Positions 1 to 13,645 of a DNA stretch of 13,645 nucleotides are shown here, one piece after another. The notes below the pieces were generated by a model. That model was not told the origin of the DNA. It ran no database searches and saw only the letters and a list, made by a program, of their open reading frames with translations. Origin of the DNA: a virus; IMG/VR virus record IMGVR_UViG_3300010266_000139, positions 1 through 13,645 of that record; one strand, written 5' to 3'. Within the stretch, counting starts at the first letter, position 1. Each line of letters begins with the position of its first letter. The translations under genes were made by a program, and so were the position numbers.

Positions 1-123
1 AAGCCCGTTGTTATCGTGGACTATTTGCAGATTATCCGACCTATTGACCCTAAGCAGAACACAAAAGACGCTGTAGACGGGCATGTAAGAGCCTTAAAGA
101 AGCTGCAAACAGATAACGACTTA
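1..123 (+). repeat. Left copy of the exact 123-bp terminal overlap (circular-assembly signature)
   Basis: Read directly: aagcccgttgttatcgtggactatttgcag...gataacgactta occurs at both 1-123 and 13523-13645. Confidence 0.95.
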
Positions 124-489
124 GTATTAGTGGTTATAAGCAGCTTGAACCGGCAAAACTATCTTACCCCCGTGGACTTTGAAAGCTTCAAAGAAAGCGG
201 CGGCATTGAGTATACAGCCGATGTTATTTGGGGCTTGCAGCTTCAAATAATGAACGGGGATTTATTCGACAAAAAAGACAAGCTAAAGGAAAAGCGGGAA
301 AAGGTGAAAGCTGCAAAGCTTGAAAACCCCCGCAAAATAGAGCTTGTTTGCCTAAAAAACCGCTACGGCAAAAGCTCTTATTCCTGTGGGTTCAAATACT
401 ACCCGCAATTTGATTACTTTGTGCCGCAATCAGATTTTGACGGCTTTACAGAGGTAGACGACGCAGACAACCCCTTTACACGGATATAA
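1..489 (+). CDS. C-terminal 162 codons of the same primase-helicase (wrap-around continuation), not an independent gene
   Basis: Frame 1 is open from base 1 (KPVVIVDYLQII...), and base 1 is equivalent to 13523, which is in phase with the ATG at 12050. The RecA-like helicase C-terminus reads VLVVISSLNR...IELVCLKNRYG. The GVG start at 16 in the ORF track is internal. Confidence 0.85.
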   Translation, partial: KPVVIVDYLQIIRPIDPKQNTKDAVDGHVRALKKLQTDNDLVLVVISSLNRQNYLTPVDFESFKESGGIEYTADVIWGLQLQIMNGDLFDKKDKLKEKREKVKAAKLENPRKIELVCLKNRYGKSSYSCGFKYYPQFDYFVPQSDFDGFTEVDDADNPFTRI

Positions 490-494
490 GCCCC

Positions 495-531
495 GGGGCG
501 TGCCGCAATGGTGCGCCCTATTATTTTGCTT
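495..531 (+). terminator. Putative intrinsic terminator after the primase-helicase gene
   Basis: GGGCGTGCC (496-504) pairs with GGTGCGCCC (510-518): 9 bp including 2 G-T wobbles, with a 5-nt loop, followed by TATTATTTTGCTTTTC. Confidence 0.55.
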
Positions 532-558
532 TTCATGTAAACATATAAAACAGAGTAA

Positions 559-587
559 TTGACAAAACACGGGTAACATGATATTAT
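559..587 (+). promoter_or_regulatory. Sigma-70-type promoter for the portal-to-capsid operon
   Basis: TTGACA (559-564), a 17-nt spacer, and an extended -10 TGaTATTAT (579-587). The spacer and -10 (GTAACATGATATTAT) are a degenerate copy of the shared box GTAAACATGATAATA. Confidence 0.6.
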
Positions 588-620
588 CTATGTGAACGAG
601 TTTACAGAAAGGGGCTTAGC

Positions 621-1823
621 ATGGCTATTTTAGACCGGCTCTTTAAGAAACAGAGTAAAACCGCCGTTGCTACAGCGGCGCAGATGATAAACGAGCCCAC
701 AGGGGTATTTACCGCCTACAACGGCGATGCTTACAGCAATGATATTTACCGTGGTGCTGTAGACGCTATAGCCCGGAATATCGGCAAGCTAAAGGGCGGG
801 CACGTTATTAAGTATGCAGACCATGACAAAATAGAGGGCGATTGCAAACTAAATAGGCTCTTACAGGTGCGCCCAAATCCTTATATGAGTGCCTACGACC
901 TGTTATATAAACTTGCTACGCATTATTACTTGTACAATAACGCCTTTGCGCTTTTAGAGCGTGACAACCGGGGCGAACTTACCGGCATTTACCCGGTAAC
1001 GTGTACAAGCGTGCAAATGCTTACAGATGCCCTAAACAATCTGTATTGCCTTTTCTACTTCAAAAGCGGTAAACAGGCTCTATTGCCCTACCGTGATATT
1101 GTCCACCTACGCCGCAACTTTAACAGCGACGACCTTTTAGGCGACGACAACGCAGCCTTATACCCGGCTTTAGAGCTTGCGCACACGCAGAACGAGGGCA
1201 TTATATCGGGTATCAAATCCGGGGCGAATATCCGGGGCATTTTGAAGTATACGCAGATAATGAGCCAGGAAAAGCTGAAAGAAGAAAAAGAAGCCTTTAT
1301 TGCCGATTATCTGCAAATCAGCAACGACGGCGGCATAGTGGCTATTGACCAAAAGGCAGAGTATACGCCGATTGAAAGCAAGCCGGTAATACTTACCGCC
1401 GACCAAACACAGGAAGTAAAAAAGAAAATATATGATTATTTGGGAATATCAGAAAACATTGTAAACAGCAATTACAATGAAGATGAATTTGCCGCCTTTT
1501 ACGAAAGCACAATAGAACCCTTTGCCGTGGCTCTAAGCATGGAATTTACAGCAAAGGTATTTACCGACCGTGAACAGGCTTTCGGCAACTCTATCATGTT
1601 TGAAAGCGGGCGGCTACAGTTTACAAGCAATGCAACCAAAGTAAACCTTATCAAAGAAATTATGCCTTTGGGCTTGCTTTCGATAAACCAAGCTTTAGAG
1701 ATTTTGAACCTACCGGCTATACAGGGCGGGGAAAAGAGACTACAAACGCTTAACGTTGTGGACGCAGACAACGCCTTAGCTTATCAGCTGCACAAAGCCG
1801 GGGAAAGAAACGGCGACCAATGA
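621..1823 (+). CDS. Phage portal protein, HK97 family
   Basis: 400 aa, the typical size for HK97-type portals, and placed immediately upstream of the prohead protease and major capsid genes. RBS AGAAAGGGG lies 6 nt upstream of the ATG. Confidence 0.85.
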   Translation: MAILDRLFKKQSKTAVATAAQMINEPTGVFTAYNGDAYSNDIYRGAVDAIARNIGKLKGGHVIKYADHDKIEGDCKLNRLLQVRPNPYMSAYDLLYKLATHYYLYNNAFALLERDNRGELTGIYPVTCTSVQMLTDALNNLYCLFYFKSGKQALLPYRDIVHLRRNFNSDDLLGDDNAALYPALELAHTQNEGIISGIKSGANIRGILKYTQIMSQEKLKEEKEAFIADYLQISNDGGIVAIDQKAEYTPIESKPVILTADQTQEVKKKIYDYLGISENIVNSNYNEDEFAAFYESTIEPFAVALSMEFTAKVFTDREQAFGNSIMFESGRLQFTSNATKVNLIKEIMPLGLLSINQALEILNLPAIQGGEKRLQTLNVVDADNALAYQLHKAGERNGDQ

Positions 1824-2044
1824 CGCAGCAAGCAAGAGTATTGCGCTATATGCGGGAATACGGCAGCATAACGAGCCTTGAAGCTTTCCGGGATTTAGGC
1901 ATAACACGCCTAAGCGGGGTTATATTCGACCTACGCAAAACCCATGCTATAGGCTCTACCACAGAGAACAGCCGCAACCGATACGGCGAAAAAACGAGCT
2001 ACAGCCGGTATTATCTTGCAGACGAAAAGAGGGCGGCACAATGA
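1820..2044 (+). CDS. Small winged-helix/HTH DNA-binding protein (HTH_39-like pattern)
   Basis: 74 aa. VLRYMREYGSITSLEAFRDLGITRLSGVIFDLRK...NRYGEKTSYSRYYL matches the small phage wHTH pattern (ITxxEA..LGIxRLsxrIxdLRk...NrxGxx..yxrYxL). It has ATGA overlaps with both the portal stop (1820-1823) and the protease start (2041-2044). Confidence 0.6.
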   Translation: MTQQARVLRYMREYGSITSLEAFRDLGITRLSGVIFDLRKTHAIGSTTENSRNRYGEKTSYSRYYLADEKRAAQ

Positions 2045-2613
2045 AAGAAATCAGAGTAGCAGAAATAAGAGCAGCTGCCCCGGCAGGGGCAGAAAGCCTT
2101 GTTTTAGTGGGTACGCCGATAGTATACGACACGCCCACAACGATACATGACCCGGCAGGGGAATATATCGAAATCATACAGCGGGGCGCACTTGACGGCG
2201 CAGACCTTAGCGACGTGAGATTATTTTACAATCACGACCTAAGCAAAGTGCCCCTTGCCCGTACACCCCGCACAATGCAGCTTGAATTGACCCCGGCAGG
2301 GCTTGAAATGAAAGCGGCATTGCCCGACACGGCAGAAGCCCGGGCGGTTTATGAAGCGGTAAAGCGTGGCGACCTTAGCGGCATGAGCTTTGCTTTTACT
2401 GTGAACGACGGCGGCAGCCGGTACGATGCACAGACGAACACCCGGACAATTACCCGCATTGCTAAGGTGCTTGAATGTTCTGTAGTGCCTTTTCCCGCTT
2501 ACCCTACGGCAAGCGTAGAAGCCCGGAACGAGCGCAGCGCAGGGCTTAGAACCTTAGCAGCACGAAAGCAAGCTAAAAGGCTTGTAAATCAGATTTTGAA
2601 AGTGAGGATATAA
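2041..2613 (+). CDS. HK97-family prohead maturation protease (peptidase S78/U35)
   Basis: 190 aa with the catalytic-region motifs LFYNHD and LSGMSFAF. Located between the portal and major capsid genes. Confidence 0.9.
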   Translation: MKEIRVAEIRAAAPAGAESLVLVGTPIVYDTPTTIHDPAGEYIEIIQRGALDGADLSDVRLFYNHDLSKVPLARTPRTMQLELTPAGLEMKAALPDTAEARAVYEAVKRGDLSGMSFAFTVNDGGSRYDAQTNTRTITRIAKVLECSVVPFPAYPTASVEARNERSAGLRTLAARKQAKRLVNQILKVRI

Positions 2614-2617
2614 AACC

Positions 2618-3862
2618 ATGAAGTTTAAGACCGTTGCGGAAGCTTTCAACTTCTACCGCACAAAGGAAGTTGCAGAAATGGAACGCAGAGCGCAGGAAAT
2701 CGGGCACATTATCGACACCGACGAAAACGCCGATATTGAAGCCCTTAACATCGAGCTTAGGGGCATTAAGGAAGCCCGGGAAAACATCGAGCTTAGAAGC
2801 TCTAGCCCGGCGCAGGGGCTTAACGTCATTACCGGCATGAAAACCGAGCCGCAGGGCAAAAAGACCTTTGGCGACGACGTTTTAGACACCCCGGAATACC
2901 GCAGCGCATTTTATAAAAGCCTTTTGGGGCAGGGAATGACCGAAACCGAAAAGGCGGCTTATGATGCGGGTATGAAGCTTTCCGAAAAGAGGGCAGATGC
3001 CTTTATCAGCTCTACAGATGCCGTTGCCGTCATTCCTACGCAGACGCTTAACGAGGTTATCAAGAAAGCCCGCACTATGGGCGGCTTGCTTTCCGAGTGC
3101 CGCAGCTTTGCGCTTCCTACTAAAATTTCTGTGCCTGTGGGTACGCCGAGCAATAAAGCTGCATGGCACACCGAGGGCGCAGCCGTTGACGCTGAAAAGG
3201 TAGTACCGACCGCCGTTACTTTCGACGGGTACGAGATTATCAAAATCTTTGCTATCAGCGCAAAAGCCCGCCGCATGAGCATTGCCGCTTTTGAAAGCTA
3301 CCTTGTAGACGAGCTTACAGCGTGCGTTATGGAATGTATCGCAGATGCCCTTGTAAACGGCACAGGCAGCGCACAGGGTACGGGGCTTGAAGCCGGTATT
3401 ACATGGGTAAAGACCGGCACGGGCAAAAACGCCGTAGAAATCGCCGCAAATGGCAGCTTTACTTATGCTAAAGTCGTGGAAACTATCGCTTTGCTGAAGC
3501 GTGGCTATTCCAACGGCGCAAAGTGGGCTATGAACAATGCGACCCTTTACAATGTGTTCTACGGCATGACCGATACCACAGAACGCCCCGTATTTATCGC
3601 AGACCCGAAAGCCGAGGGCGTGGGCAAAATCTTAGGGCATGAAATCATCATTGATGATAACATTGCCGATAACGTCGTTTACTTTGGCAACTTTGCTAAG
3701 TACATGGCTTACAATATGCCCGAGGGTATCGCCGTTGAAGTGAGCCGGGAAAGCTCTTTCCGTAAGGGGCTTATTGATTACAGGGCTCTTGCTATCGCAG
3801 ATTGCAAGCCGATTGTAACAGAAGCCTTTGTAAAGCTCTATAAGGCAACGTCTAACAGCTAA
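2618..3862 (+). CDS. Major capsid protein, HK97 fold, with an N-terminal delta/scaffold-like coiled coil
   Basis: 414 aa. The N-terminal ~110 aa are charged and helical (EMERRAQEIGHIID...ELRGIKEARENIELR), followed by a capsid-like body. Position directly after the protease is canonical. Confidence 0.88.
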   Translation: MKFKTVAEAFNFYRTKEVAEMERRAQEIGHIIDTDENADIEALNIELRGIKEARENIELRSSSPAQGLNVITGMKTEPQGKKTFGDDVLDTPEYRSAFYKSLLGQGMTETEKAAYDAGMKLSEKRADAFISSTDAVAVIPTQTLNEVIKKARTMGGLLSECRSFALPTKISVPVGTPSNKAAWHTEGAAVDAEKVVPTAVTFDGYEIIKIFAISAKARRMSIAAFESYLVDELTACVMECIADALVNGTGSAQGTGLEAGITWVKTGTGKNAVEIAANGSFTYAKVVETIALLKRGYSNGAKWAMNNATLYNVFYGMTDTTERPVFIADPKAEGVGKILGHEIIIDDNIADNVVYFGNFAKYMAYNMPEGIAVEVSRESSFRKGLIDYRALAIADCKPIVTEAFVKLYKATSNS

Positions 3863-3956: not shown

Positions 3957-4241
3957 ATGCTAACTTTAGCGCAAGCCTGTAATATTCTGCACGTTGACGA
4001 GGGCAACAACGACGAACTTATAAGCAGCCTTATTTATGCTATCCCGGATTACATCGAGGTAACAACCGGCATGAACGAAGAACAGCAGAAAACAGAACCG
4101 CTTGTAGAAACGGTAAGCGGCTTTATTCTTACGCTGTGGTATTACAGCGACCACAGCGACGATATAAAGCTACAGCGCACAATAGACAGCCTGTTAAAGT
4201 GTATCACGCTGAAAGTGCAGCGCAGCACGGGCACGGCATGA
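3957..4241 (+). CDS. Head-tail connector / adaptor (gp6-like, SPP1 gp15-like, Phage_connect_1-type)
   Basis: 94 aa. The N-terminus LAQACNILHVDEGNNDELISSLIYAIPDYIEVTTG follows the classic connector pattern (lrvd..dDdeli..li.aA..yie..TG). Confidence 0.7.
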   Translation: MLTLAQACNILHVDEGNNDELISSLIYAIPDYIEVTTGMNEEQQKTEPLVETVSGFILTLWYYSDHSDDIKLQRTIDSLLKCITLKVQRSTGTA

Positions 4242-4597
4242 AAGAGTATGCACGGGGCTTTTACGGCTCTAAGGCGTGGCACGATGTAAGCCGCCTGTAT
4301 ATGACAAGTAAGCATTATGTATGCGAACGTTGCGGGGGCGTGGGCGTGATATGCCACCACAGGCGATATATAACGCCGTGGAACGTGAACGACCCGGCTA
4401 TAACTCTAAGCTTTGATAATTTAGAGTGCCTTTGCCAAGAGTGCCACAACCAAGAACACAGCGCAAAGGTAAGCCGGGCGATATTCGACGAAAGCGGCAA
4501 CATGATAGGCGCACAGGATAGCGCAGAGGTAAGAGAATACAAAAAAGCCTGTGAAGCTATCGAGCGCATGAAAAACGACCGCACAGAAAGCCCGTAG
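4238..4597 (+). CDS. HNH endonuclease (packaging-associated, cos-type systems)
   Basis: CERCGGVGVICHHRRYI...NLECLCQECHNQEH gives a Cys4 plus H-N-H signature. I chose the start at ATG 4238 because it forms an ATGA overlap with the connector stop; the track start at 4136 lies inside the connector gene. Confidence 0.85.
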   Translation: MKEYARGFYGSKAWHDVSRLYMTSKHYVCERCGGVGVICHHRRYITPWNVNDPAITLSFDNLECLCQECHNQEHSAKVSRAIFDESGNMIGAQDSAEVREYKKACEAIERMKNDRTESP

Positions 4598-4686: not shown

Positions 4687-5235
4687 ATGAATTACGTTGA
4701 ACCGATAAGGGATAAAACCACAGTACAGGACTTAGCAGACTACCTAAAGGACGTACACGAAAAGTATTACATCATGTACATGATAGGAATATACAGCGGG
4801 CTTAGAATATCCGACATCTTAAAATTAAAGGTGCGTGACATCCGGGGAAAGTCTGAAATAAAGATAAGGGAAAAGAAAACCGGCAAAGAAAAGCTTTTCC
4901 CTGTAAATGCAGAGCTTGAAAAGGCTATAGCTGCATACTGTGAGGGCAAGAAAGATTATGAATATGTTGTACCGAGTGCCCGGGCGGTAAACAAAGCTGT
5001 AAGCCGTGAATATGCTTACAGGGTAATACACGCAGCCGGGGAAGCTTTCGGCTTAGATAACTTAGGCACGCACACAATGCGCAAGACCTTTGGTTATCAC
5101 TTCTACTTGCAGACGAAAGATATTGTATTGCTAATGCGGATATTTAACCACAGCGACCAAAGCAAAACGCTTAGGTATATAGGCATAGAACAAACCACAA
5201 TAGACGCTGCAATGAGGAAATTTAGCTATAAATAG
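4687..5235 (+). CDS. Minimal tyrosine recombinase (catalytic domain only; integrase or Xer-like resolvase)
   Basis: 182 aa with the full catalytic set in order: R in SGLRISD, K in EKKTGKE, H-x-x-R in THTMRKT, H in FNHSD, and Y in LRYIG. There is no sizeable N-terminal core-binding domain. Confidence 0.8.
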   Translation: MNYVEPIRDKTTVQDLADYLKDVHEKYYIMYMIGIYSGLRISDILKLKVRDIRGKSEIKIREKKTGKEKLFPVNAELEKAIAAYCEGKKDYEYVVPSARAVNKAVSREYAYRVIHAAGEAFGLDNLGTHTMRKTFGYHFYLQTKDIVLLMRIFNHSDQSKTLRYIGIEQTTIDAAMRKFSYK

Positions 5236-5243
5236 CGGGTACA

Positions 5244-5361
5244 ACTTCACATAGTTTAGCAACGTGAACGGGGCAAGGCTCAAAGGGGGCAAAAGTGCCG
5301 ATAATATAAGGCTTTGCGGGCTATGCGGATTACTTCACACAATGTTACATATATGAACGGG
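5244..5361 (+). repeat. Two copies of a bipartite direct repeat ACTTCACA-N13/14-TGAACGGG in the recombinase-terS intergenic region
   Basis: Copy 1 is 5244-5251 plus 5265-5272. Copy 2 is 5332-5339 plus 5354-5361, 88 bp downstream. Read directly from the sequence. Confidence 0.6.
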
Positions 5362-5532
5362 TAACAGAGGTAAGCACGGTAAGCCCGAGAAGTGAACCCA
5401 CAGAAAGAAAGCCGCCGAACACCCCCCGGGGTGCGCTGTTCTGTTAGGGGCTAAGGCACCGGCGGGGGTAGGTAAGAAAACCCCTACAGGGTAAAACCGA
5501 GGGGCGGGGGGCTATCCAGTAAGCAAGTATTA

Positions 5533-5561
5533 TGCTATAATATGTGTAAACATGATAATAC
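5533..5561 (+). promoter_or_regulatory. Extended -10 promoter for the terS-terL-head-closure operon, carrying the shared box
   Basis: GTGTAAACATGATAATA lies at 5544-5560. The extended -10 is TGaTAATAC (5553-5561) and the -35 is weak (TGCTAT, 5533-5538). An alternative perfect TATAAT sits at 5536-5541. Confidence 0.5.
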
Positions 5562-5585
5562 TTGTAATAGAAATGAGGTTAGATA

Positions 5586-5921
5586 ATGGCACGAAAAAAG
5601 CACGTTGCCGAACTTGAAGCGATATTAGAGAAAATCCCCGAGGATAAGCAATATATAGGGCGCAAGCTCATAGATGAACTTATTTTCATGGATGAAACAC
5701 TAACGACGCTGAAAAGGAAAATCAAAGAGAACGGCACAGAGGAAGAATTTATACAGGGCAAGCAGCAATTTACCCGGGAAAGCACAGCCCTAACGAGCTA
5801 CAACAAAACTATACAGCGGTACAGCACGCTTTATAAGCAGCTTACCGACCTAATGCAGAAAAGCCCGGAAGCGCAAAGCAGCAATGCGGTATATGACTTT
5901 CTGAAAGCGGGGAAAGCATGA
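5586..5921 (+). CDS. terS: Terminase small subunit (P27-family-like)
   Basis: 111 aa, helical, immediately upstream of and overlapping (ATGA at 5918-5921) the large terminase. The ...IGRKLIDELIFMDETLTTLKRKIKENG... region is typical of small P27-type TerS proteins. Confidence 0.7.
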   Translation: MARKKHVAELEAILEKIPEDKQYIGRKLIDELIFMDETLTTLKRKIKENGTEEEFIQGKQQFTRESTALTSYNKTIQRYSTLYKQLTDLMQKSPEAQSSNAVYDFLKAGKA

Positions 5922-7564
5922 ACTATATAGAGCTTTACTTACAGGAAATTCAAAAGGGGCATTGCATCGTATCTAAGCGGGTGCGCCGGGTATATGAACA
6001 GCTTGTAGCCGATATGCACAACCCTAACTGTGGGTACATCTTCGACCAAAGGAAAGCCGAACGCCCTATAGAGTTTATAGAGACGTTTTGCAAGCACTCA
6101 AAAGGCGAATGGGCGGGCAAGGCGGTAAAGCTTGAACTATTCCAAAAGGCTTTTATATCGGCTCTATTTGGCTTTGTGTGTGAGCCCACAGGGTATAGGC
6201 GGTTTAGGGAAACGCTTTTCTATGTAGCCCGGAAAAACGGCAAAAGTACCATGCTTAGCGGCATTGCTCTTTATTGCCTTATCGCAGACGATGAACCCGG
6301 CGCAGAGGTTTACAGCGTGGCAAGCAAGAAAGACCAAGCCCGCATTATCTTTGATGAAACCTTAAACATGGTAAAGCAAAGCCCCGACCTTGTGAAAGTA
6401 GTTAAAAAGCGCAAGAGTGATTTATACTTTGGGCTTACCTTTTCAAAGATGCAGCCTTTAGGCAAGAACAGCGATACTTTAGACGGCTTGAACAGCCATT
6501 TAGTAATAATGGATGAGCTGCACAGCATTAAAGACCGCAACTTATACGAGGTAATGAAGCAGAGCCAAAGCGCAAGGCGGCAACCCCTGTTAGTGATGAT
6601 TACGACGGCGGGCACAATCCGGGAATGTATCTTTGACGATATGTACAAGTATGCTTGCGGCGTAGCAGACGGCACAATAAAAGACGACGGCTTTTTACCT
6701 ATCCTGTATGAGCTTGACGCTAAAAAAGAATGGGTAGACCCTATGCAATGGGAAAAAGCAAACCCCGGCTTAAACCGCATAAAGAAGCTTGACGACCTTA
6801 TAGCAAAGGTAGACCGGGCAAAGAACAGCCCCCGAGACTTAACCGGGCTATTGGTTAAAGACTTTAATGTAATTCAAACTGTGGGTACAACGTGGCTTAC
6901 TTTCGACGATATAGACAACCCGGAAACTTTCGACCTTGCCCGCTTTAGGGGCTCTTATGCCATAGGCGGCGCAGATTTGAGCATTACCACAGATTTAACT
7001 TGTGCAACCCTTTTGCTTATGGATAAGCAAGAAAAGCGGTATGTAACGCAAATGTATTGGTTACCGGCAGATAACTTTGAACAGCGGGTAAAGGATGAAA
7101 AAATACCCTATGACAAATGGTTAGAAGCAGGGCAACTAAGGCTTTGCGCCGGTAATTCTATCAATTACAGCGACGTTACAGCATGGTTTTTAGAAATGGT
7201 TTACACCTACGAAATAACGCCCGCATGGATTTATTACGACTCTTACAGCGCAAAATATTGGGTACAGGAAATGCAAGACCACGGCTTTAATATGGTGCGC
7301 TGCATACAGGGCGCAAAAACGCTTTCTTTGCCTATGCAAATGTTAGGCGCAGACTTGAAAGCGAAAAAGGTAAACTACAACAATAGCAGCTTGCTTAAAT
7401 GGTGCATGACTAATACCGGCGTGCAAGAGGATAGGAACGGCAATATAGTACCGATAAAGGCGCAAAGCCCTAAGTACCGTATAGACGGCTTAGCAAGCCT
7501 GTTAGACGCTTATGTAGGCTTATACGAGCATTACAACGAATATAAAGACACGGCAACCGTGTAA
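5918..7564 (+). CDS. terL: Terminase large subunit (Terminase_1-type ATPase plus nuclease)
   Basis: 548 aa. Contains GEWAGKAVKLELFQKAFISALFGF, Walker A ARKNGKST and Walker B-like LVIMDELH, followed by a C-terminal nuclease-length region. Confidence 0.92.
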   Translation: MNYIELYLQEIQKGHCIVSKRVRRVYEQLVADMHNPNCGYIFDQRKAERPIEFIETFCKHSKGEWAGKAVKLELFQKAFISALFGFVCEPTGYRRFRETLFYVARKNGKSTMLSGIALYCLIADDEPGAEVYSVASKKDQARIIFDETLNMVKQSPDLVKVVKKRKSDLYFGLTFSKMQPLGKNSDTLDGLNSHLVIMDELHSIKDRNLYEVMKQSQSARRQPLLVMITTAGTIRECIFDDMYKYACGVADGTIKDDGFLPILYELDAKKEWVDPMQWEKANPGLNRIKKLDDLIAKVDRAKNSPRDLTGLLVKDFNVIQTVGTTWLTFDDIDNPETFDLARFRGSYAIGGADLSITTDLTCATLLLMDKQEKRYVTQMYWLPADNFEQRVKDEKIPYDKWLEAGQLRLCAGNSINYSDVTAWFLEMVYTYEITPAWIYYDSYSAKYWVQEMQDHGFNMVRCIQGAKTLSLPMQMLGADLKAKKVNYNNSSLLKWCMTNTGVQEDRNGNIVPIKAQSPKYRIDGLASLLDAYVGLYEHYNEYKDTATV

Positions 7565-7582: not shown

Positions 7583-8035
7583 ATGGCACAGAATAACAAC
7601 GGGCTTTACTTCCTAAAGGACAAAAAAGCGCAAATCTACAATACCGTCTATGTAGAACCCGAAGAATCTTACAGCAACCCTATACCGTATTATGTAGCGG
7701 TAAATCCTGCGCCCCTGTGGTGCTACACCCGGCAGCTATCGCAAGACCAACTTTTTGCAGCGCACGCCTATTGGAACGACGAAACCCGCTTTTTTGTCTT
7801 TAATTTCCGGGATGATGTACAAATCTATAGCCACGTCTACTATAAGGGTGATTTGTACGAGGTTACCCGAGTAGACCGCACAGACGATTACAACGGGGAA
7901 ACATTCGTTTATGTAAAGAACGTAAAAGCCGCAAAATCAGATATTGAACGCTTGCGCCCTTATGGATGGAAACCCGAGGACGAGGGACTAAAACCCGCCT
8001 ACGATGAAAACGGCAACCGCATAAAGTACACATGA
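7583..8035 (+). CDS. Head-closure / head-tail joining protein (SPP1 gp16-like, Phage_H_T_join-type)
   Basis: 150 aa. LWCYTRQLSQDQLFAAHAYWNDETRFFVFNFRDDVQIYSHVYYKGDLYEVTRVDRTDD follows the family pattern (vWa.v...s..e...a......f.iRyr.dv....i.y.g..yeI..v.d). Confidence 0.65.
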   Translation: MAQNNNGLYFLKDKKAQIYNTVYVEPEESYSNPIPYYVAVNPAPLWCYTRQLSQDQLFAAHAYWNDETRFFVFNFRDDVQIYSHVYYKGDLYEVTRVDRTDDYNGETFVYVKNVKAAKSDIERLRPYGWKPEDEGLKPAYDENGNRIKYT

Positions 8036-8100: not shown

Positions 8101-8107
8101 TATATTA

Positions 8108-8136
8108 TTGGTATTATCGTGTAAACATGATAATAA
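8108..8136 (+). promoter_or_regulatory. Upstream promoter of a tandem pair, carrying the shared box inside a 7-bp inverted repeat
   Basis: -35 is TTGGTA (8108-8113), a 17-nt spacer, then TGaTAATAA (8128-8136). The box GTGTAAACATGATAATA is at 8119-8135. TATTATC (8112-8118) and GATAATA (8129-8135) are reverse complements. Confidence 0.5.
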
Positions 8137-8139
8137 GTA

Positions 8140-8169
8140 TTGACAAACGCTTACCGGCTATGTTATTAT
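8140..8169 (+). promoter_or_regulatory. Downstream promoter of the tandem pair, for the orf172-parA operon
   Basis: TTGACA (8140-8145), an 18-nt spacer, then TGtTATTAT (8161-8169). The half-box CATGTAAACATA at 8174-8185 lies just downstream, in operator position. Confidence 0.55.
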
Positions 8170-8208
8170 ATCCCATGTAAACATAAAAAGAAAGTGAGGG
8201 CGCAGCTT

Positions 8209-8727
8209 ATGGACGTTTACACAATGGAAAAATGGCAGCAAGACCGCAGCTTTAGCGCAGAGCCCGGGCAAGAGGTTACAGAGGACGTATACAACGAAAT
8301 GTTAAATTGTATGCCGCCTAAGACCTTGCCCCGGGGAAAAGCTGAACAGGCTTTACAGGATTACCGCATACCCGTACACGCCGGGTTTTTAATGGGTGAG
8401 CCGCACAGCGCAAGCAAAGACGGGCAATTATACCTTGCCTTTGGCATGAACGACTACGGCAAAGGGAAGCATTATTATTACTTAGGGCTTAGCTTACCGG
8501 CTAAGGTGCTGCACGGCGCTTACTATTACTTTGATTGCCTTAACGCCTTTGTAAATGACGGGCTTTTTAAAGAAAGCGAATTTGCCGACGATGCCGAAGC
8601 CATAAGCACCGGCGCAAACTATGAAGCAACCGTATACAAATACGAATACAAGCACGGGGAACGGGTAAGCAGCAAGGTACTTTATGACCCGTGGGCGTGC
8701 TTTGATGAAAAGGGGGCTACAGAATGA
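8209..8727 (+). CDS. Hypothetical protein (172 aa), first gene of the partition operon
   Basis: The ATG at 8209 is preceded by GAAAGTGAGGG with 8-nt spacing. I rejected the track start (TTG at 8140) because it is the -35 hexamer. I recognise no motif. The protein is Tyr/Gly-rich in the middle (GKGKHYYYLGLSLPAKVLHGAYYYF). An ATGA overlap joins it to parA. Confidence 0.6.
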   Translation: MDVYTMEKWQQDRSFSAEPGQEVTEDVYNEMLNCMPPKTLPRGKAEQALQDYRIPVHAGFLMGEPHSASKDGQLYLAFGMNDYGKGKHYYYLGLSLPAKVLHGAYYYFDCLNAFVNDGLFKESEFADDAEAISTGANYEATVYKYEYKHGERVSSKVLYDPWACFDEKGATE

Positions 8728-9482
8728 AAGTATACGCCTTAGTAAATCAAAAAGGCGGCGTAGGAAAGACCACAACCGCCCTTAATGTGGGTGCAGGGCT
8801 TGCAGCGACCGGCAAAGCTGTATTGCTCATTGATGCAGACCAAAGCGGCAACCTTAGCAAAAGTGCCGGTATAGAGCTTTCCGACGATGCCCCGACCGTG
8901 TACGAGGTACTAAAGGGCGCAGCCGATATAAACGACGCTGTACAGCCCGCACAGGGCGGCAAATACGACGTATTACCCGCCGATAGTATGCTAAGCGGCG
9001 CAGACGTGGAGTTAGCGACCGTGCCGGGGCGTGAAATGCTCTTGAAAGAAGCTATAGCACAGCTTTCTAAGCCCTATGATTACATTTTGATAGATTGCCC
9101 GCCGTCTCTTAATACTTTGTCGCTTATGGCTCTTACAGCCGCTAACGGCGTTATAGTGCCGGTACAGGCACAGTATTTAGCACTTGACGGCATGGCACAG
9201 CTTAACCAAACAATAGAGCTTGTAAGAAAGAGAATGAACCCACAGTTAGAAATATGCGGCGTGCTTGTGACGCTGTACGACCCCCGCAAGCTCTTAAACA
9301 AAGAAGTATTAGAGAGCTTAACGGCGGCTTTTCCGGGCAAGGTGTATGCTACCACGATAAGCAACAATATAGCCCTTGCAGAAGCCCCGAGCTATGGCAA
9401 AGATATATTTGAATACAAGCCCAAGAGCAAAGGCGCAGAACAGTACAGGCAGCTTGTACAAGAAATATTGAAAGCAGAGTAA
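8724..9482 (+). CDS. parA: ParA/Soj-family partition ATPase
   Basis: 252 aa with the deviant Walker A at the N-terminus (VNQKGGVGKTTTALN), Walker A' LLIDADQSGN and Walker B ILIDCPPS. Confidence 0.93.
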   Translation: MKVYALVNQKGGVGKTTTALNVGAGLAATGKAVLLIDADQSGNLSKSAGIELSDDAPTVYEVLKGAADINDAVQPAQGGKYDVLPADSMLSGADVELATVPGREMLLKEAIAQLSKPYDYILIDCPPSLNTLSLMALTAANGVIVPVQAQYLALDGMAQLNQTIELVRKRMNPQLEICGVLVTLYDPRKLLNKEVLESLTAAFPGKVYATTISNNIALAEAPSYGKDIFEYKPKSKGAEQYRQLVQEILKAE

Positions 9483-9501: not shown

Positions 9502-9530
9502 TTGATTTTACCGTGTAAACATGATAATAT
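9502..9530 (+). promoter_or_regulatory. Promoter for the RHH-xis-rep operon, carrying the shared box
   Basis: -35 is TTGATT (9502-9507), a 17-nt spacer, then TGaTAATAT (9522-9530). The box GTGTAAACATGATAATA is at 9513-9529. Confidence 0.6.
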
Positions 9531-9548: not shown

Positions 9549-9857
9549 ATGGCACGCATGAACCGCAACCCGCTTGAAGCAATGGGCTTTGATGCAGAAA
9601 AGGAAAGGGAAGCTTTAGGGATTGAACCCACAGGGGGAAAGCGTGGCAGACCGCCCAAAACCGACCTTGTGCGCACTAACGGGGTACAGGCGGGATTGCC
9701 CGAGGATTGGACAAGAGCAACTTTTATTGTAAAGGTTGAGCAACTGGAAAAGCTCAAAGATTACGCCTATACCGAGCGTTTGACGCTTAAAGAAGCTCTT
9801 GAAGCCGCCTTAGATGCTTTCTTAAAGGACAAAACCGACCTTTTGCCGCACAAATAA
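9549..9857 (+). CDS. Small ribbon-helix-helix-like DNA-binding protein, a candidate ParG/ParB-type centromere-binding partner of ParA
   Basis: 102 aa. The N-terminal half looks basic and disordered (GGKRGRPPKTD). The C-terminal TRATFIVKVEQLEKLKDYAYTERLTLKEALEAALDAFL fits a beta-alpha-alpha RHH layout. It lies directly after parA. RBS is AGAGGAG. Confidence 0.55.
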   Translation: MARMNRNPLEAMGFDAEKEREALGIEPTGGKRGRPPKTDLVRTNGVQAGLPEDWTRATFIVKVEQLEKLKDYAYTERLTLKEALEAALDAFLKDKTDLLPHK

Positions 9858-9869: not shown

Positions 9870-10055
9870 ATGATACAGCTTGAAAAAGAAAAGGCGTATA
9901 CAGCAAAGGAAACCGGCGCAATTATGAAGCGCACGCCCGAAACTATCCGGGATTACATCAAAGACGGCAAGTTAAAAGCTGAAAAAATCGGCAACGCCTA
10001 CTATATAACCGAAAGTGCTATAAAGGACTATTACAAAGACAAAGAAAGAGGGTAG
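9870..10055 (+). CDS. Excisionase-family / MerR-like helix-turn-helix protein
   Basis: 61 aa. YTAKETGAIMKRTPETIRDYIKDGKLKAEKIGNAYYITESAIKDY matches the HTH_17 excisionase pattern (yt.kE.a..l.vs..ti...i..G.l.a.kiG..y.I). Confidence 0.75.
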   Translation: MIQLEKEKAYTAKETGAIMKRTPETIRDYIKDGKLKAEKIGNAYYITESAIKDYYKDKERG

Positions 10056-10060: not shown

Positions 10061-11710
10061 ATGCCGAGAGTTATTGACGAATTGACCCCGGAAGAAGTAG
10101 AAGCGGTAAAGCGCATTGATGAAGAATATAGACCGCTACTTGATGCAGCTATGGCAAAATTTCAAGCGGCTTTTGATGCCTACAGCAAAGCAAGCGCAGC
10201 CGCTAAAGCTGAAAAACGCCCGCTTACCGTAGAAGAAGCCGCCTTAGGCGACGCAATGAGCGCAGCCGGGGACGAACAAACCGCCCTTAATGACAAGTGG
10301 TTAGATGCCCGGGCACAGGTTACCCGCAAGGCAGAAACCCGGCTTTTTGAGAATTACCGGGGCAACGTCGATGCTATTCTAAGCATGATTAAAGAGGAAG
10401 TGCCCCGGCACATTGCCGTTACTTCTATCTTTGCCGGGGATGAACCCACAGAGAAAGAGCGCAGAGCCGCCGACCGGCAAGCAGCCAAAGCCCGCAAGGA
10501 AATTGAAGCCGGTATAGCCTTTAACCGTGAACAGCTTAAAAGCCGCCCGGATGATGAAGAACTTATAAAGGCTACCAATGGACTTGTTGAACTGTTAGAC
10601 AGCGGCGCATATAAGCTTACTAACCCTTATGACATGGCGTTTAGTGATGATGCGCTTAGAACGTCTATTTATGATAGCTTTGCAAACTATCTCGAATTTC
10701 TGAAAAGAGCCGCCCCGGATGCCTACAAAGAAGCTATACACTATATAGACGATTGCATAGAGAATAAGCGGGGCATGTATGATACCGTTGCAAAGAAAGC
10801 CAAGGCAACGCAGCCCCCGGAATTATCAGTAACGACAATAACGCCCAAAGAACACCTAAGCACCGTAGACAAGCTAAGCGGTAAAGCTTTTGACGTTGAA
10901 AACGATGTACTTTACACTAAAAAGCTTATTGCTGTGGGCGTAGAACGCAGGGGAAGCAAGAAAGAAATAAATACCTTGCTTAGTATGAGCTTTGACGAAC
11001 TGGAAAAAGCAGGGGTTATTATCGACGCTAAGAAGCTTACCCCGTTTGATAGAGAGGTACACGACGCTATTACAACGCTATTTGTTGAGGGCGGCAATGA
11101 TGTAATGAGCGTAGAAATGATTTATAGAACCATGATAGGCAAGCCCAAAGCCCGCCTTGCGCCCAAACAAGCCGAAGCAATAACGCAGAGCATTACAAAG
11201 ATGATGCACACGCTTATTACTATTGACGCTTCACAGGAAGCGAAAGCCTACGGCTTTGACAATTTGAAATATAAGGGCAATTTGCTTTATGCTGAAATGG
11301 CTATAGCTTCAATCAATAACAATGTAATTGAAGCCCTACACGTCATTAAAGAGCCGGTTTTATACACCTACGCAAACCGCACTAACAGAATAGGGCGGGT
11401 AGATATGAAACTACTTGACAGCCCTATAAACAAGAACGAGGAAACTATAATTTTGCAAGGGTATCTGTACCGCCGCATTTTAGCAATGCAACACGGACAA
11501 AACAAAAGCATTGTTTACGATACTGTATATAAGCAGCTTAGCATAGATGCCCCGAGCGCAGCCGCACTAAGAAAGAAAAAAGCCGACGTGCGCAGCAAAA
11601 TTAAAACCCTGTTAGACTACTGGAAGAAAGAAAAGTTTATTGCCGGGTACGTTGAAAATAAGCGGGGGCAAGAAATGTACAGCGTTACTATTAGACTGAA
11701 AAACGAGTAA
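10061..11710 (+). CDS. Putative replication initiator (long Ala/Glu-rich helical N-terminal half, probable DNA-binding C-terminal half)
   Basis: 549 aa. The call rests mainly on context: the stop codon is 6 nt from a 4 x 22-bp iteron array and the primase-helicase gene lies downstream. I recognise no diagnostic Rep motif by eye. Confidence 0.45.
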   Translation: MPRVIDELTPEEVEAVKRIDEEYRPLLDAAMAKFQAAFDAYSKASAAAKAEKRPLTVEEAALGDAMSAAGDEQTALNDKWLDARAQVTRKAETRLFENYRGNVDAILSMIKEEVPRHIAVTSIFAGDEPTEKERRAADRQAAKARKEIEAGIAFNREQLKSRPDDEELIKATNGLVELLDSGAYKLTNPYDMAFSDDALRTSIYDSFANYLEFLKRAAPDAYKEAIHYIDDCIENKRGMYDTVAKKAKATQPPELSVTTITPKEHLSTVDKLSGKAFDVENDVLYTKKLIAVGVERRGSKKEINTLLSMSFDELEKAGVIIDAKKLTPFDREVHDAITTLFVEGGNDVMSVEMIYRTMIGKPKARLAPKQAEAITQSITKMMHTLITIDASQEAKAYGFDNLKYKGNLLYAEMAIASINNNVIEALHVIKEPVLYTYANRTNRIGRVDMKLLDSPINKNEETIILQGYLYRRILAMQHGQNKSIVYDTVYKQLSIDAPSAAALRKKKADVRSKIKTLLDYWKKEKFIAGYVENKRGQEMYSVTIRLKNE

Positions 11711-11716
11711 TAGGGC

Positions 11717-11802
11717 GGGTGCAAAACCAGTAACGCCCGGGTGCAAAACTCGTAACGCCCGGGTGCAAAACTCGTAACGCCCGGGTGCAAAACTCGTAAC
11801 GC
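11717..11802 (+). repeat. Iteron array: four tandem 22-bp direct repeats GGGTGCAAAAC(T/C)(C/A)GTAACGCCC, a candidate replication origin
   Basis: Units are at 11717-11738 (2 mismatches), 11739-11760, 11761-11782 (identical to the second), and 11783-11802 (truncated at the last 2 nt). They are head to tail with no spacers. The 22-bp period equals two helical turns. Confidence 0.85.
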
Positions 11803-11832
11803 TAAAGACCCCGAAAAAGTGCCGCAAAGCCC

Positions 11833-11900
11833 CTATTTATAAGGCTTTCCGAGCAAGGGCAAAAAACGTATAAGCTTTATAAGCATATATAAGCTTTATA
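11833..11900 (+). repeat. AT-rich block with a duplicated 13-mer TATAAGCTTTATA, a candidate DNA-unwinding element next to the iterons
   Basis: TATAAGCTTTATA occurs at 11869-11881 and 11888-11900, with a related TATAAGGCTTT at about 11838. A GC-rich hairpin follows (GGCGGCT...AGCCGCC, about 11909-11929). Confidence 0.5.
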
Positions 11901-12049
11901 GGGGCGTGGGCGGCTTGCTTGCAGCCGCCGCCCCGCCTGTGGTATCAATAGCATAAGGGAAAGAGAAAGAGCCCGCAAAGTAGCAGCAACCTACCCTGTG
12001 GGCTCATTCCATAGCCCCGCACACCGACCGAGCGCAAAGGAGCTATAAA

Positions 12050-13645
12050 ATGAGTTTACCGCATGAATTAGAAGAACTCAAGAGCTTACCGCAATGGGTA
12101 TGCTATCAAAACCAATGGAACGAGAAAAAGCAGAAAAACAGCAAGATACCGAAGAACCCGGCGACCGGCTACGGCGCAAAGGCGAACGACCCGGCGACGT
12201 GGGCGACCTATGCCGAAGCTGTAGAAGCCGCCCGCCGCTTTCATTTTGACGGCGTGGGCTTTGAATTTGCAGCCGGGTATATGGGTATTGACCTTGACAA
12301 CGTAATAGGCGCAGACGGCAATATAAACGCTGTAGCAGCCGAAATTGTAGCGACGATAGACAGCTACACCGAGTACAGCCCGAGCGGTAAAGGCTTGCAT
12401 ATCCTTTGCAAGTGCCCCGGGGCAAAGCCTATAGGAAGCCGCAACGATGCAATAGGCTTAGAGATGTACAACAATGGGCGTTTCTTCACAGTAACCGGCA
12501 AGCCCTACGGCGCAGCTAAGCCGATACAGGAACGCACAGAGCAAGTAAAAGCGGTTTATATGAAGTATCTGTATAAGCCGCCTAAAGAGCAGCCAAAGGC
12601 GCAGACCGGCACGGGCTCTAATCCTGTGGGCTCATATAAGGACACCGGCACAGATGCGGAATTGTGGCAAAAGATGTTTAGCAGCGCAAAGGGGCGGGAA
12701 ATACAAGCCCTTTACAGCGGCGATATATCCGGGCATGATAACGACCACAGCAGAGCAGACCAAGCCTTAGCAAATCATTTAGCTTACTGGACTAATAACG
12801 ACGCTGCACGCATTGACCGAATGTTTAGGCAATCGGGATTGATGCGCCCGAAATGGGAACAAAAGCGGGGGGCGCAGACCTACGGCGCAAAGACCATAGC
12901 GGCGGCAATCGCAAACACGCCGACTTATACCCCGCCTGTTAGGGCTACAGCGCAAGAAGATTTTGCAGAAAGAGGGGCAAGGGCAATGCAGCCGCAAGAA
13001 AGAGAAATTGCGCCGGCGCAACCGGCACAGGAAAAGAAACCGCCCGAGAATATCCGGGAATACATCAAAAACAGCTTAAAAGGCGACTTAGAACGCTTTC
13101 AGAGCTTCAAAGACCGCAAAACCGGCTTTAGCAATATAGACGAAATAACGAGCCTTTACCCGGGCTTATACGTCTTAGGGGCTATAAGCAGCTTAGGCAA
13201 AACGACCTTTGCACACCAATTAGGCGACCAATTAGCAAAGGCGGGCGACCATGTTTTATATTTCAGCTTAGAGCAAACCCGGCTTGAAATGGTTACAAAG
13301 GGGCTTGCCCGGATAACGGCGCAGCAATCCGAGCGCAGCGACTTTGCAACGGCGGTAAGTGCTATAGAGATACGCCGGGGCAATATAACGGATGCCGTAA
13401 AAGAAGCTGTAAGAACCTATGCCGATTTTGCAGAGCATGAAACCGTTATAGAATGTTCTTTCGATACGACCATAGACACGATTACAGGCACGGTAAAGGA
13501 CTATATAAAGCAGACCGGCACAAAGCCCGTTGTTATCGTGGACTATTTGCAGATTATCCGACCTATTGACCCTAAGCAGAACACAAAAGACGCTGTAGAC
13601 GGGCATGTAAGAGCCTTAAAGAAGCTGCAAACAGATAACGACTTA
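12050..13645 (+). CDS. Primase-polymerase / PriCT-like / DnaB-RepA-like helicase fusion, N-terminal ~530 codons. The ORF is open to the window edge and continues at 1-489, giving about 653 aa in total.
   Basis: My own translation from the ATG at 12050 (AGGAG 7 nt upstream) has no stop before the window end. It shows AEP prim-pol motifs GIDLD and SPSGKGLHIL, then a PriCT-like segment HSRADQALANHLAYWTNNDAARIDRMFRQSGLMRPKW, then Walker A GAISSLGKTT and a Walker B-like VVIVDYLQ. It is missing from the ORF track only because it has no in-window stop. Confidence 0.85.
   Translation, partial: MSLPHELEELKSLPQWVCYQNQWNEKKQKNSKIPKNPATGYGAKANDPATWATYAEAVEAARRFHFDGVGFEFAAGYMGIDLDNVIGADGNINAVAAEIVATIDSYTEYSPSGKGLHILCKCPGAKPIGSRNDAIGLEMYNNGRFFTVTGKPYGAAKPIQERTEQVKAVYMKYLYKPPKEQPKAQTGTGSNPVGSYKDTGTDAELWQKMFSSAKGREIQALYSGDISGHDNDHSRADQALANHLAYWTNNDAARIDRMFRQSGLMRPKWEQKRGAQTYGAKTIAAAIANTPTYTPPVRATAQEDFAERGARAMQPQEREIAPAQPAQEKKPPENIREYIKNSLKGDLERFQSFKDRKTGFSNIDEITSLYPGLYVLGAISSLGKTTFAHQLGDQLAKAGDHVLYFSLEQTRLEMVTKGLARITAQQSERSDFATAVSAIEIRRGNITDAVKEAVRTYADFAEHETVIECSFDTTIDTITGTVKDYIKQTGTKPVVIVDYLQIIRPIDPKQNTKDAVDGHVRALKKLQTDNDL
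13523..13645 (+). repeat. Right copy of the exact 123-bp terminal overlap
   Basis: Identical to 1-123. It lies inside the helicase domain coding sequence and keeps the reading frame (13523 and 12050 are in the same phase). Confidence 0.95.

Follow-up and report, generated by a model that had tools for sequence, protein, structure and literature searches.

The viral record IMGVR_UViG_3300010266_000139, analysed here over its full length of 13,645 nucleotides (nt) and referred to as the window, carries phage head genes and a plasmid-like replication and partition backbone on one small molecule, which raises the question of whether it is a virus, a plasmid or a satellite that exploits viruses. 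It is likely to represent in full the genome of a capsid-forming phage satellite that is kept as an episome, a satellite-plasmid, in a gut-type Firmicutes host, probably a member of the Lachnospiraceae. A capsid-forming satellite-plasmid had been proposed in the preliminary description of this DNA, and that reading is now supported by the circular form of the genome, its set of head genes, the functions that it lacks, its plasmid backbone and the comparative evidence that its relatives are episomal.

A circular genome

The window consists of a 13,522-nt unit and a 123-nt overlap.

1 to 123, no strand: assembly overlap, a 100% direct repeat of 13523-13645 that closes a 13,522-nt circle

The overlap falls within the open reading frame of the primase-helicase gene and is therefore attributed to assembler wrap-around, not to a physical terminal repeat. 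The junction between positions 13522 and 1 is bridged by two contigs from unrelated samples (L004 and L006), on which an intact primase-helicase gene of 653 codons is followed by the portal gene. An identical capsid protein is encoded on contigs from 13 assemblies, with the gene order unchanged and host flanking sequence in none of them. These contigs often end at the iterons, the direct repeats of the replication origin, because such repeats disrupt short-read assembly. The terminal overlaps of the window and of L020, L022, L025, L037, L044, L057, L069, L081, L111 and L148 measure 55, 77, 78, 95, 99, 107, 123 or 127 nt, lengths that resemble assembler k-mer sizes, and they lie at genome positions that differ between elements, which points to circular or concatemeric templates and not to true terminal repeats.

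The source of the record is metagenomic, and iterons break short-read assemblies, as would suit an assembly chimera in which a plasmid fragment had been joined to a phage or satellite fragment. This explanation is hardly credible, given that the order of the genes and the two boundaries between modules are found again in separate assemblies from many samples and in divergent relatives, an isolate genome among them.

The unit encodes 16 proteins, every one on the + strand, and leaves 1,281 nt non-coding, with two large gaps at 5236-5585 and 11711-12049. A complete circle with about 1.3 kb of non-coding DNA had been described previously and is confirmed by the identical ends, the junction-spanning contigs and the counted intergenic sequence, although the earlier figure of 17 proteins has to be corrected to 16. 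Searched by megablast, phage and plasmid collections gave no match to the whole unit, and Rfam and tRNA scans of the window were empty.

Head and packaging genes

From the portal gene onwards, the circle carries a block of head and packaging genes:

621 to 1823, + strand: portal protein (PF04860, E=1.3e-53)
2041 to 2613, + strand: prohead serine protease, S78 (PF04586, E=3.5e-29)
2618 to 3862, + strand: major capsid protein of the HK97 fold family (PF05065, E=8e-37)
3957 to 4241, + strand: head-tail adaptor, gp6/gp15-like (Ad1), 94 amino acids (phrog_40, E=0.0018; TIGR01560, 22.1 bits against a 24-bit cut-off)
4238 to 4597, + strand: HNH endonuclease, a packaging accessory (PF01844; phrog_119/144)
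5586 to 5921, + strand: probable small terminase subunit, TerS (phrog_1066, E=2e-25; weak TerS PHROG matches), overlapping the start of TerL
5918 to 7564, + strand: large terminase subunit, TerL (ATPase, PF03354, E=3e-39; nuclease, PF20441, E=5e-33)
7583 to 8035, + strand: head closure protein, SPP1 gp16-like (Hc1), 150 amino acids (TIGR01563, 22.8 bits, cut-off 20.6; phrog_25)

The portal, S78 protease, capsid, TerL and HNH proteins are strong family matches. The profile of the head closure family matches the SPP1 gp16 structures 2kca and 7z4w (E=0.001). For the adaptor, the gp6-like connector family PF05135 is matched by 17 of the 24 family members, and the family profile found no match among PDB sequences. 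The product of 5586 to 5921 is a probable TerS on the basis of its position, its match to phrog_1066 (function unknown) and weak matches to PF05119 (Terminase_4) in 3 of its 26 relatives. The capsid protein is 47-85% identical to those of satellite relatives, and its best phage match reaches 33%. The element thus carries the whole head set that characterises those phage-inducible chromosomal islands that form capsids (cf-PICIs), namely capsid, portal, protease, connectors, HNH, TerS and TerL, with the adaptor and TerS recognised at the family level only. The same complete set, including the gp16-like closure protein, had been read from the translations in the preliminary description, and all of these assignments are retained.

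One further gene lies inside the block:

1820 to 2044, + strand: small winged-helix protein (HTH_39) of 74 amino acids, a variable insert (PF14090, E=1.7e-10; phrog_4973, function unknown)

Among about 150 relatives, an HTH_39 gene between portal and protease is found only in the window and in L022, where the protein is 79% identical.

Functions absent from the element

The family libraries scanned were Pfam, PHROGs, NCBIfam and PADLOC, and in none of them did any of the 16 proteins match a tail, lysis or CI/Cro family. No holin-type hydrophobic stretch or other membrane segment was found in the 16 proteins, no HTH_3/XRE-type protein is present among them and, with all genes co-oriented, a divergent control region is absent. 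Nor did the library scans detect a Stl-like regulator or a ProQ/FinO-like protein among the 16. Together with the 1,281 nt of non-coding DNA, these negative searches uphold the earlier statement that tail, lysis and CI/Cro functions are missing.

Everything for a closed and filled head is nevertheless encoded, so that an autonomous minimal virus, or a gene-transfer-agent-like particle, might be imagined to spread as tail-less heads without a helper tail. In line with this, cf-PICIs release filled capsids that lack tails (10.1101/2025.02.11.637232). Such spread is very improbable for the present element, however, because it encodes an adaptor and a closure protein of the gp16 type, which are known to form the neck on which tails dock, while no receptor-binding, DNA-injection or lysis function was found in the window. 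Moreover, the tail-less capsids of cf-PICIs are reported to be non-infective until phage tails have been acquired (10.1101/2025.02.11.637232).

A single product is left without any assignment:

8209 to 8727, + strand: 172-amino-acid protein of unknown function (no match in Pfam, PHROGs, NCBIfam or PADLOC; no membrane segment)

This protein has 215 homologues, nearly all on contigs of 12-15 kb. Some are encoded close to ParA on contigs of about 17.6 kb (L166-L168) that look like plasmids, have no capsid gene and encode a Xer-type recombinase. This distribution indicates a plasmid-associated accessory gene and not a virion gene, possibly one for plasmid establishment or anti-defence.

A plasmid replication and partition backbone

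The remainder of the circle is occupied by the following features:

8724 to 9482, + strand: ParA partition ATPase of 252 amino acids, without an N-terminal helix-turn-helix (PF13614, E=6e-56; CbiA/ParA families)
9549 to 9857, + strand: ribbon-helix-helix (RHH) protein of 102 amino acids, a probable partition adaptor or centromere binder and repressor (profile matches)
9870 to 10055, + strand: HTH_17 DNA-binding protein of the MerR/excisionase fold (PF12728, E=6e-9)
10061 to 11710, + strand: replication initiator (Rep) of 549 amino acids, a 250-residue helical N-terminal part followed by a C-terminal double winged-helix (fold match)
11716 to 11802, no strand: four 22-bp iterons (CGGGTGCAAAACTCGTAACGCC), starting 5 nt past the rep stop codon
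11869 to 11935, no strand: A+T-rich TATAAGCTT repeats (3.4 copies), a candidate unwinding element, followed by a G+C-rich inverted repeat
12050 to 13645, continuing across the junction to 489 (3' end 124 to 489), + strand: primase-polymerase/helicase fusion of 653 amino acids (PF22763, E=2e-27; PF03796, E=1e-25)
495 to 519, + strand: terminator-like hairpin after the primase-helicase gene, with a stem of 11 pairs, 7 of them GC, and a T run behind it

The initiator belongs to a sequence family that has no match in Pfam, PHROGs or NCBIfam, and its sequence profile found nothing useful in the PDB. With the full-length model, Foldseek returned helical-bundle noise only, and the isolated C-terminal domain alone was informative. 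The model of these 254 residues has a pLDDT of 89.6, and the top 18 matches of a PDB fold search with it are all RepE, domains 2-3 of RctB, complexes of Rep with the DNA unwinding element, or Pi (E from 8e-7 to 3e-4, probability 1.0; TM scores of 0.41-0.50 for 17 of the 18 and 0.30 for one), the next match having E=0.015. The family, for which neither Pfam nor NCBIfam holds a model, is very large: thresholds of E<=0.001 and E<=1e-30 give 3,361 and 1,025 representative clusters (50% identity), respectively. What its members conserve is the C-terminal double winged-helix domain, whereas the 250-residue helical N-terminal extension is variable.

About four repeats of 22-23 bp occupy the same position in nearly all ParA-type relatives, with a sequence that varies by lineage. 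Across 153 element pairs, iteron similarity follows the identity of the Rep C-terminal part (Spearman rho 0.62), whereas its correlation with the N-terminal part is weak (rho 0.24) and that with the helicase is not significant (rho 0.26, p=0.06). This contrast points to the winged-helix domain as the predicted reader of the iterons. In contrast, the TATAAGCTT repeats are kept in many relatives despite diverged iterons and Rep, which suggests that some conserved partner other than Rep may recognise them, either the helicase or a factor from the host. These tandem 9-mers (11869-11900) lie about 70 nt past the iterons and are near-identical in L011, L020, L037, L044, L053, L068 and L163. DnaA boxes are not enriched in the window, and none lies within the origin region.

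The primase-helicase is built of a primase-polymerase N-terminus, in whose translation the motifs DxD and SGKGLH are visible, followed by an NrS-1 helix-bundle domain and a DnaB_C ATPase. A combination of initiator, own helicase and own primase is the logic of the IncQ plasmid RSF1010. Relatives of the backbone are found on a complete 52-kb plasmid of Anaerotruncus colihominis, with identities of 26% for the Rep C-terminal domain, 30% for ParA and 38% for the helicase domain, and by this comparison the backbone is plasmid-like. The Rep candidate, iterons and primase-helicase named in the preliminary description are therefore sustained by the RepE/RctB/Pi fold, the array of four 22-bp repeats and the NrS-1 helix-bundle and DnaB_C domains.

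The ParA assignment, also made previously, is secured by PF13614, and that of its RHH partner agrees with profile comparisons in which the best four PDB matches of the family are all RHH proteins, including SvtR, CopG and omega of pSM19035, at weak E-values (0.02-0.7). A basic GRPRK tail, a TRATFIV strand and a strand-helix-helix C-terminus are conserved in the RHH protein. Within its otherwise variable N-terminal tail, the AT-hook-like GRPRK motif is conserved (alignment A4); it could be a ParA-stimulating arginine finger or a minor-groove contact. The ParA, RHH and HTH_17 genes abut or overlap in relatives, in which the HTH_17 gene is kept between the RHH gene and Rep (order ParA-RHH-HTH-Rep). 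The HTH_17 protein had been regarded as Xis-type, and a protein with this fold is indeed present, but it has no integrase partner and its place in the conserved order makes a regulator more likely.

Episomal and integrated relatives

Relatives were gathered by a capsid search, which yielded 70 loci in viral collections and 80 in genomes. The 27 ParA/Rep-type relatives of at least 11 kb are all on contigs of no more than 14.8 kb, which start at varied points of one gene circle. Eight ParA-type relatives (L020, L022, L025, L037, L044, L069, L081 and L111) have wrap-around ends, with units of 12.5-14.7 kb, and dozens of circles of 12.5-14.8 kb with the same backbone were retrieved. One of them, L111, forms a circular contig of its own in the genome assembly of a cultured isolate, Bacillus ectoiniformans DSM 28970, and two others (L081 and L117) belong to metagenome-assembled genomes of Lachnospiraceae and Christensenellaceae. 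Rep homologues with 98-100% identity are encoded on contigs of 13.4-13.6 kb from more than 20 assemblies. Embedding in a long host contig was seen in none of about 29 ParA-type relatives and in none of the more than 100 Rep-homologue clusters listed, the only long contig among them being one of 34 kb.

Dozens of head-module relatives, on the other hand, are embedded in contigs between 20 kb and 6 Mb long, and ParA, RHH and Rep are missing from every one of them. Two integrated relatives were annotated. The first (L083) lies within a 209-kb Lachnospiraceae contig and has a head module 71-86% identical to that of the window; the second (L096) lies within the complete chromosome of Acetobacterium carbinolicum, and its main head genes are about 59-70% identical. 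Each has the same tail-less head block with host genes on both sides, an integrase of 380-399 amino acids with arm-binding or SAM-like domains, a CI-like repressor and its own, different replication gene. Attachment-site repeats were not found around L083. By their gene content, both are ordinary Firmicutes cf-PICIs of the published kind (10.1101/2022.09.08.507074). The presence of the same head cassette on integrative (L083) and plasmid backbones indicates that the head-packaging block moves between lifestyles as a cassette, and the contrast between small ParA/Rep-type circles and integrated relatives with integrase and CI-like repressor supports an episomal window over an excised island.

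Two further elements, L148 (from the isolate Clostridium sp. K13; 12,653 nt with a 77-nt overlap) and L057, are circular and tail-less and carry the head module without ParA, RHH, this Rep or a full integrase. Both seem to represent another kind of episomal capsid-forming element, maintained by a different module.

A small recombinase and its candidate site

A tyrosine recombinase is encoded between the HNH and TerS genes, and the gap that follows it contains two conserved regions:

4687 to 5235, + strand: small tyrosine recombinase of 182 amino acids, catalytic domain only (PF00589, E=2e-19; phrog_216, E=2e-60)
5335 to 5357, + strand: inverted-repeat site TCACACAATGTTACATATATGAA, the candidate target of the small recombinase and the best-conserved block of the intergenic alignment
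5380 to 5520, no strand: candidate cos region with G+C-rich blocks, including CCCCCCGGGG at 5424-5433 (conservation and location)

All catalytic residues of the recombinase are there (R40, H128, R131, H154 and Y164). Among NCBIfam models, those for XerA/XerD and Fim-type invertases come nearest, with scores far under the cut-off in every case. Homologues with 50-57% identity occur in many temperate phages of Firmicutes, such as phi3626, BtCS33 and the Javan streptococcal phages, where they typically adjoin an ArpU late regulator just upstream of the terminase. The enzyme coexists with a true, full-length integrase both in the integrated relatives L083 and L096 and in temperate phages, and it is therefore not considered an integration enzyme. 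The minimal tyrosine recombinase noted from the sequence previously is thus real, whereas a role as integrase does not stand.

The site at 5335 to 5357 has the form TCACACAATG-N-TGAA, with two inverted arms round a short spacer, and lies about 100 nt past the recombinase stop codon. It is present in 9 of 13 relatives with a close recombinase and in none of 78 without one. Recombinase and downstream site together span 4687-5357 in the window, 11951-12620 in L083 and 11867-12424 in L096. The pair would form a self-contained recombination cassette, most simply for multimer resolution, and the function of such a pair appears undescribed. An invertible promoter switch operated by the small recombinase was also considered and rejected, as no convincing inverted repeats flank the promoter and a single core-type site fits better. 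The G+C-rich blocks just beyond, which are common to plasmid-type and integrated relatives with the same terminase, are the best cos candidates, and their placement between HNH and TerS would fit that role.

The recombinase and the HTH_17 protein bear directly on the possibility that the window is the excised, circular, replicating intermediate of an integrative cf-PICI, with the former as its integrase and the latter as its excisionase. A tyrosine recombinase and an excisionase-fold protein are both present, close relatives of the head module are integrated, and an induced island circularises and would be assembled with wrap-around ends. An excised island is nonetheless decidedly unlikely. 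The recombinase has a catalytic domain only, lies between HNH and TerS and stands beside a full-length integrase in L083, L096 and temperate phages; the window has ParA/RHH and a Rep/iteron origin, which are missing from integrated relatives; long host contigs hold none of the ParA-type relatives or listed Rep-homologue clusters counted above, among which the 34-kb contig is the only long one; and the isolate relative L111 is a separate circular contig.

Promoters and a shared operator-like site

Four predicted promoters, ahead of the portal, TerS, 172-residue/ParA and RHH-HTH-Rep operons, are accompanied by the same short site:

537 to 587, + strand: GTAAACAT site (537-544) and portal operon promoter (TTGACA-17-TATTAT with TG, 559-587)
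5524 to 5564, + strand: TerS-operon promoter (TGCTATAAT) within a 10-nt perfect inverted repeat, with GTAAACAT at 5546-5553
8103 to 8185, + strand: promoter of the 172-residue protein/ParA operon (TTGACA-18-TATTAT with TG, 8140-8169), with GTAAACAT at 8121 and 8177
9502 to 9530, + strand: RHH-HTH-Rep operon promoter with GTAAACAT (9515-9522) in its spacer

The five GTAAACAT sites of the window are all intergenic and all on the + strand, against an expected count of 0.43, and five were reached in none of 200 shuffles. The terS site lies directly past the -10 box and the portal site ahead of the promoter. For the 7-mer core GTAAACA, the density is 0.57 sites per kb across 27 ParA-type relatives and 0.16 per kb across 64 relatives without ParA, with a concentration of sites upstream of the portal, ParA and TerS genes. 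In L037, L111, L117 and L163 the motif forms tandem 9-bp arrays, with 3 to 8 copies of the repeat unit GTAAACATA. Both the single sites and these arrays are candidate centromere sites. No GTAAACAT motif is present inside the integrated island L083. That island has instead an exact 16-nt palindrome, CGTTGCGATGTCGCAA, at 4282-4297 in its cro-like control region and again at 12647-12662 upstream of terS, so that each backbone seems to install its own operator ahead of the packaging genes.

The density of the motif tracks the sequence of the RHH strand. All 18 elements whose RHH protein has a (W/Y/F)TRATF strand or a close variant carry at least 0.41 sites per kb, and 9 of 11 elements with other strands carry no more than 0.40 per kb, which favours the RHH protein as the putative GTAAACAT binder. 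The HTH_17 protein was rejected as the binder, as its presence fails to separate motif-rich from motif-poor relatives whereas the RHH strand mostly does. This arrangement suggests that the capsid genes are governed by the circuits of plasmid partition and copy control.

The head genes might also be a decaying or domesticated module on a plasmid that forms no transmissible particles, that is, a cryptic remnant. No helper, induction signal or repressor has been identified for the element and particles are not in evidence, as would be expected of such a remnant. This alternative is unlikely, because the nine head and packaging genes are intact and syntenic in dozens of relatives at about 50-99% identity, the head operons have strong predicted promoters with conserved operator-like sites, and the unit size stays within a narrow range of 12.5-14.7 kb, as a constraint from capsid capacity predicts.

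Proposed mode of life

The life of the satellite-plasmid can be proposed from established processes, namely initiation at iterons, partition of type Ib, assembly of HK97-type heads, cos packaging with the help of HNH proteins and closure of the neck by proteins of the gp15/gp16 type. The C-terminal double winged-helix of Rep would bind the four 22-bp iterons and open the adjacent A+T-rich repeats, after which the element's own primase-polymerase and DnaB-type helicase would prime and unwind, like the IncQ trio. With its own initiator, helicase and primase, the element would need little host machinery. ParA and the RHH protein would segregate the copies, and the small tyrosine recombinase would probably resolve multimers at the adjacent inverted-repeat site. 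Portal, protease and capsid proteins would assemble small proheads, which HNH, TerS and TerL would fill with unit-length DNA cut at a cos site that lies upstream of terS, and the gp6-like adaptor and gp16-like closure protein would then seal the neck. Tails, and presumably lysis, would come from a co-resident or co-infecting siphovirus, as in cf-PICIs. Since the head, packaging, partition and rep operons share the promoter site GTAAACAT, one DNA-binding protein encoded by the element probably silences the head genes during plasmid life; the most likely candidate is the RHH protein, in a role like that of omega of pSM19035. The analysis itself shows which genes are present, that the molecule is circular, the fold of Rep, the architecture and co-variation of the iterons, where the motif is placed and how episomal and integrated relatives contrast. 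In this scheme we infer particle formation, the supply of tails and lysis by a siphovirus, the induction signal, the binder of GTAAACAT, the position of cos and the role of the recombinase.

Several points weigh against the reading as an episomal capsid-forming satellite or soften parts of it. The case is made from sequence alone, and particles, copy number and helper lie outside the data. Assembly with wrap-around ends, taken by itself, would also be expected of an excised replicating island or of concatemers. The adaptor and TerS of the window have weak matches of their own and are assigned by transfer from their families, and the RHH assignment combines weak E-values (0.02-0.7) with a conserved secondary-structure pattern. 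The statistics of iteron co-variation ignore shared ancestry, which inflates them. Two relatives, L031 and L036, carry the GTAAACAT motif with a different RHH strand sequence. The element has no recognisable phage-sensing repressor of the Stl or CI type, which leaves inducibility by a helper unsupported and makes 'inducible' the least supported part of the label given to such elements. Lastly, the 34-kb contig L163 carries the same backbone with an insertion sequence (IS) and extra cargo.

In L163, which comes from a fermentation metagenome, positions 1-15663 hold ParA-RHH-HTH-Rep-iteron-helicase and the portal gene, with an IS (rve/TniB-like), RelA_SpoT and a sigma/anti-sigma pair upstream. 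This contig may be a variant too large to package, an integration or a larger plasmid.

A wider proposal, possible but on balance doubtful, is that the RHH protein serves both as centromere binder and as master repressor of the portal, terminase, par and rep promoters through GTAAACAT, so that capsid output would be coupled to plasmid copy or partition status, in a lineage that would have arisen independently of the Vibrio satellite-plasmids when an iteron replicon that primes itself and is independent of the host became fused to the head module of a cf-PICI. If this holds, the combination of self-priming replicon and head module would suit establishment in any host reached by a borrowed tail, and plasmids would be passing among gut Firmicutes by a widespread route that has gone unrecognised.

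Comparison with known systems

The replication module resembles that of iteron plasmids and replicons such as RepE of F, Pi of R6K and RctB of Vibrio chromosome 2 in its double winged-helix initiator and in 22-bp direct repeats beside an A+T-rich region. Similarly to the RepC/RepA/RepB system of the IncQ plasmid RSF1010, the window encodes its own helicase and primase besides the initiator. However, its Rep has no family match at the sequence level and carries a 250-residue helical N-terminal extension, and its origin contains no DnaA boxes. Unlike in IncQ, a single fusion protein combines the helicase with a primase of the archaeo-eukaryotic primase-polymerase type. The partition genes appear similar to type Ib systems (ParF/ParG of TP228; delta/omega of pSM19035), in which a small ParA without an N-terminal DNA-binding domain is followed by an RHH protein with a flexible basic N-terminal tail. 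The short repeats at several promoters of the window recall omega as a global regulator, although the repeat here is 9 bp (GTAAACATA) compared with the 7-bp heptads of omega, and the RHH protein is weak by sequence and its binding putative.

Among mobile elements, P4 is likewise a phage satellite that is able to persist as a plasmid and has its own primase-helicase, but it has an integrase and usually integrates, and it remodels the capsid of its helper, having no capsid, portal or terminase genes. Phage-plasmids of the P1, N15 and SSU5 types also combine partition, plasmid replication and virion genes on one episome, whereas they encode complete virions with tails and lysis genes, neither of which the window has, and are several times larger.

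Closer still are the cf-PICIs of Firmicutes, which make their own capsids and package DNA in an HNH-dependent manner (10.1101/2022.09.08.507074). They share with the window a homologous and syntenic portal-protease-capsid-adaptor-HNH-TerS-TerL-closure block, the absence of tail and lysis genes and a size of 12-15 kb. The head module of the window is 47-60% identical to those of islands from Staphylococcus, Bacillus, Acetobacterium and Clostridium, and 71% identical to that of L083, and modular exchange with integrative cf-PICIs is clear. These islands are chromosomal, with an end-placed integrase, a CI/Stl-like repressor and their own replication genes, whereas the window has a partition and iteron replicon; neither a chromosomal island with an integrase at one end nor a CI/Stl-type repressor was found for it.

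The preliminary description had assumed the class to be undescribed, but capsid-forming satellite-plasmids (cf-PISPs) were already published for Vibrio in 2025-26 (PMC13230959; preprint 10.1101/2025.10.10.681744). The Vibrio element TG54 is a 15.8-kb circle with a cf-PICI head set, parA and repA, without an integrase and with a distinct tyrosine recombinase in its morphogenesis block. The 13.5-kb unit of the window is likewise a small extrachromosomal circle with a full cf-PICI head and packaging set and no tails; it too has parA and rep, no canonical integrase and a separate tyrosine recombinase in the morphogenesis block, between HNH and TerS, and the life proposed for both is vertical as a plasmid and horizontal through own capsids and borrowed tails. 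Judged from its genes alone, the window shows every functional feature by which cf-PISPs are defined. It differs in belonging to another phylum, with a head module of the Firmicutes cf-PICI lineage, in its ParA-RHH-HTH-Rep-iterons-primase/helicase backbone and in the Stl-like regulator and ProQ/FinO-like protein that TG54 has and for which no counterpart was found in the window. Because the head module clusters with those of Firmicutes cf-PICIs, an origin independent of the Vibrio cf-PISPs is likely, in a comparison that takes TG54 by its description only.

If own capsids are indeed combined with borrowed tails, such elements would provide an overlooked route of plasmid transfer in gut communities, and two isolates that carry relatives, Bacillus ectoiniformans DSM 28970 (L111) and Clostridium sp. 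K13 (L148), allow direct tests. The authors of the Vibrio study stated that they found no such elements beyond that genus (PMC13230959). Satellite-plasmids, so far reported only in Vibrio, would thus extend to a large and apparently independent family in Firmicutes, with a range that takes in Lachnospiraceae, Christensenellaceae and Bacillus.

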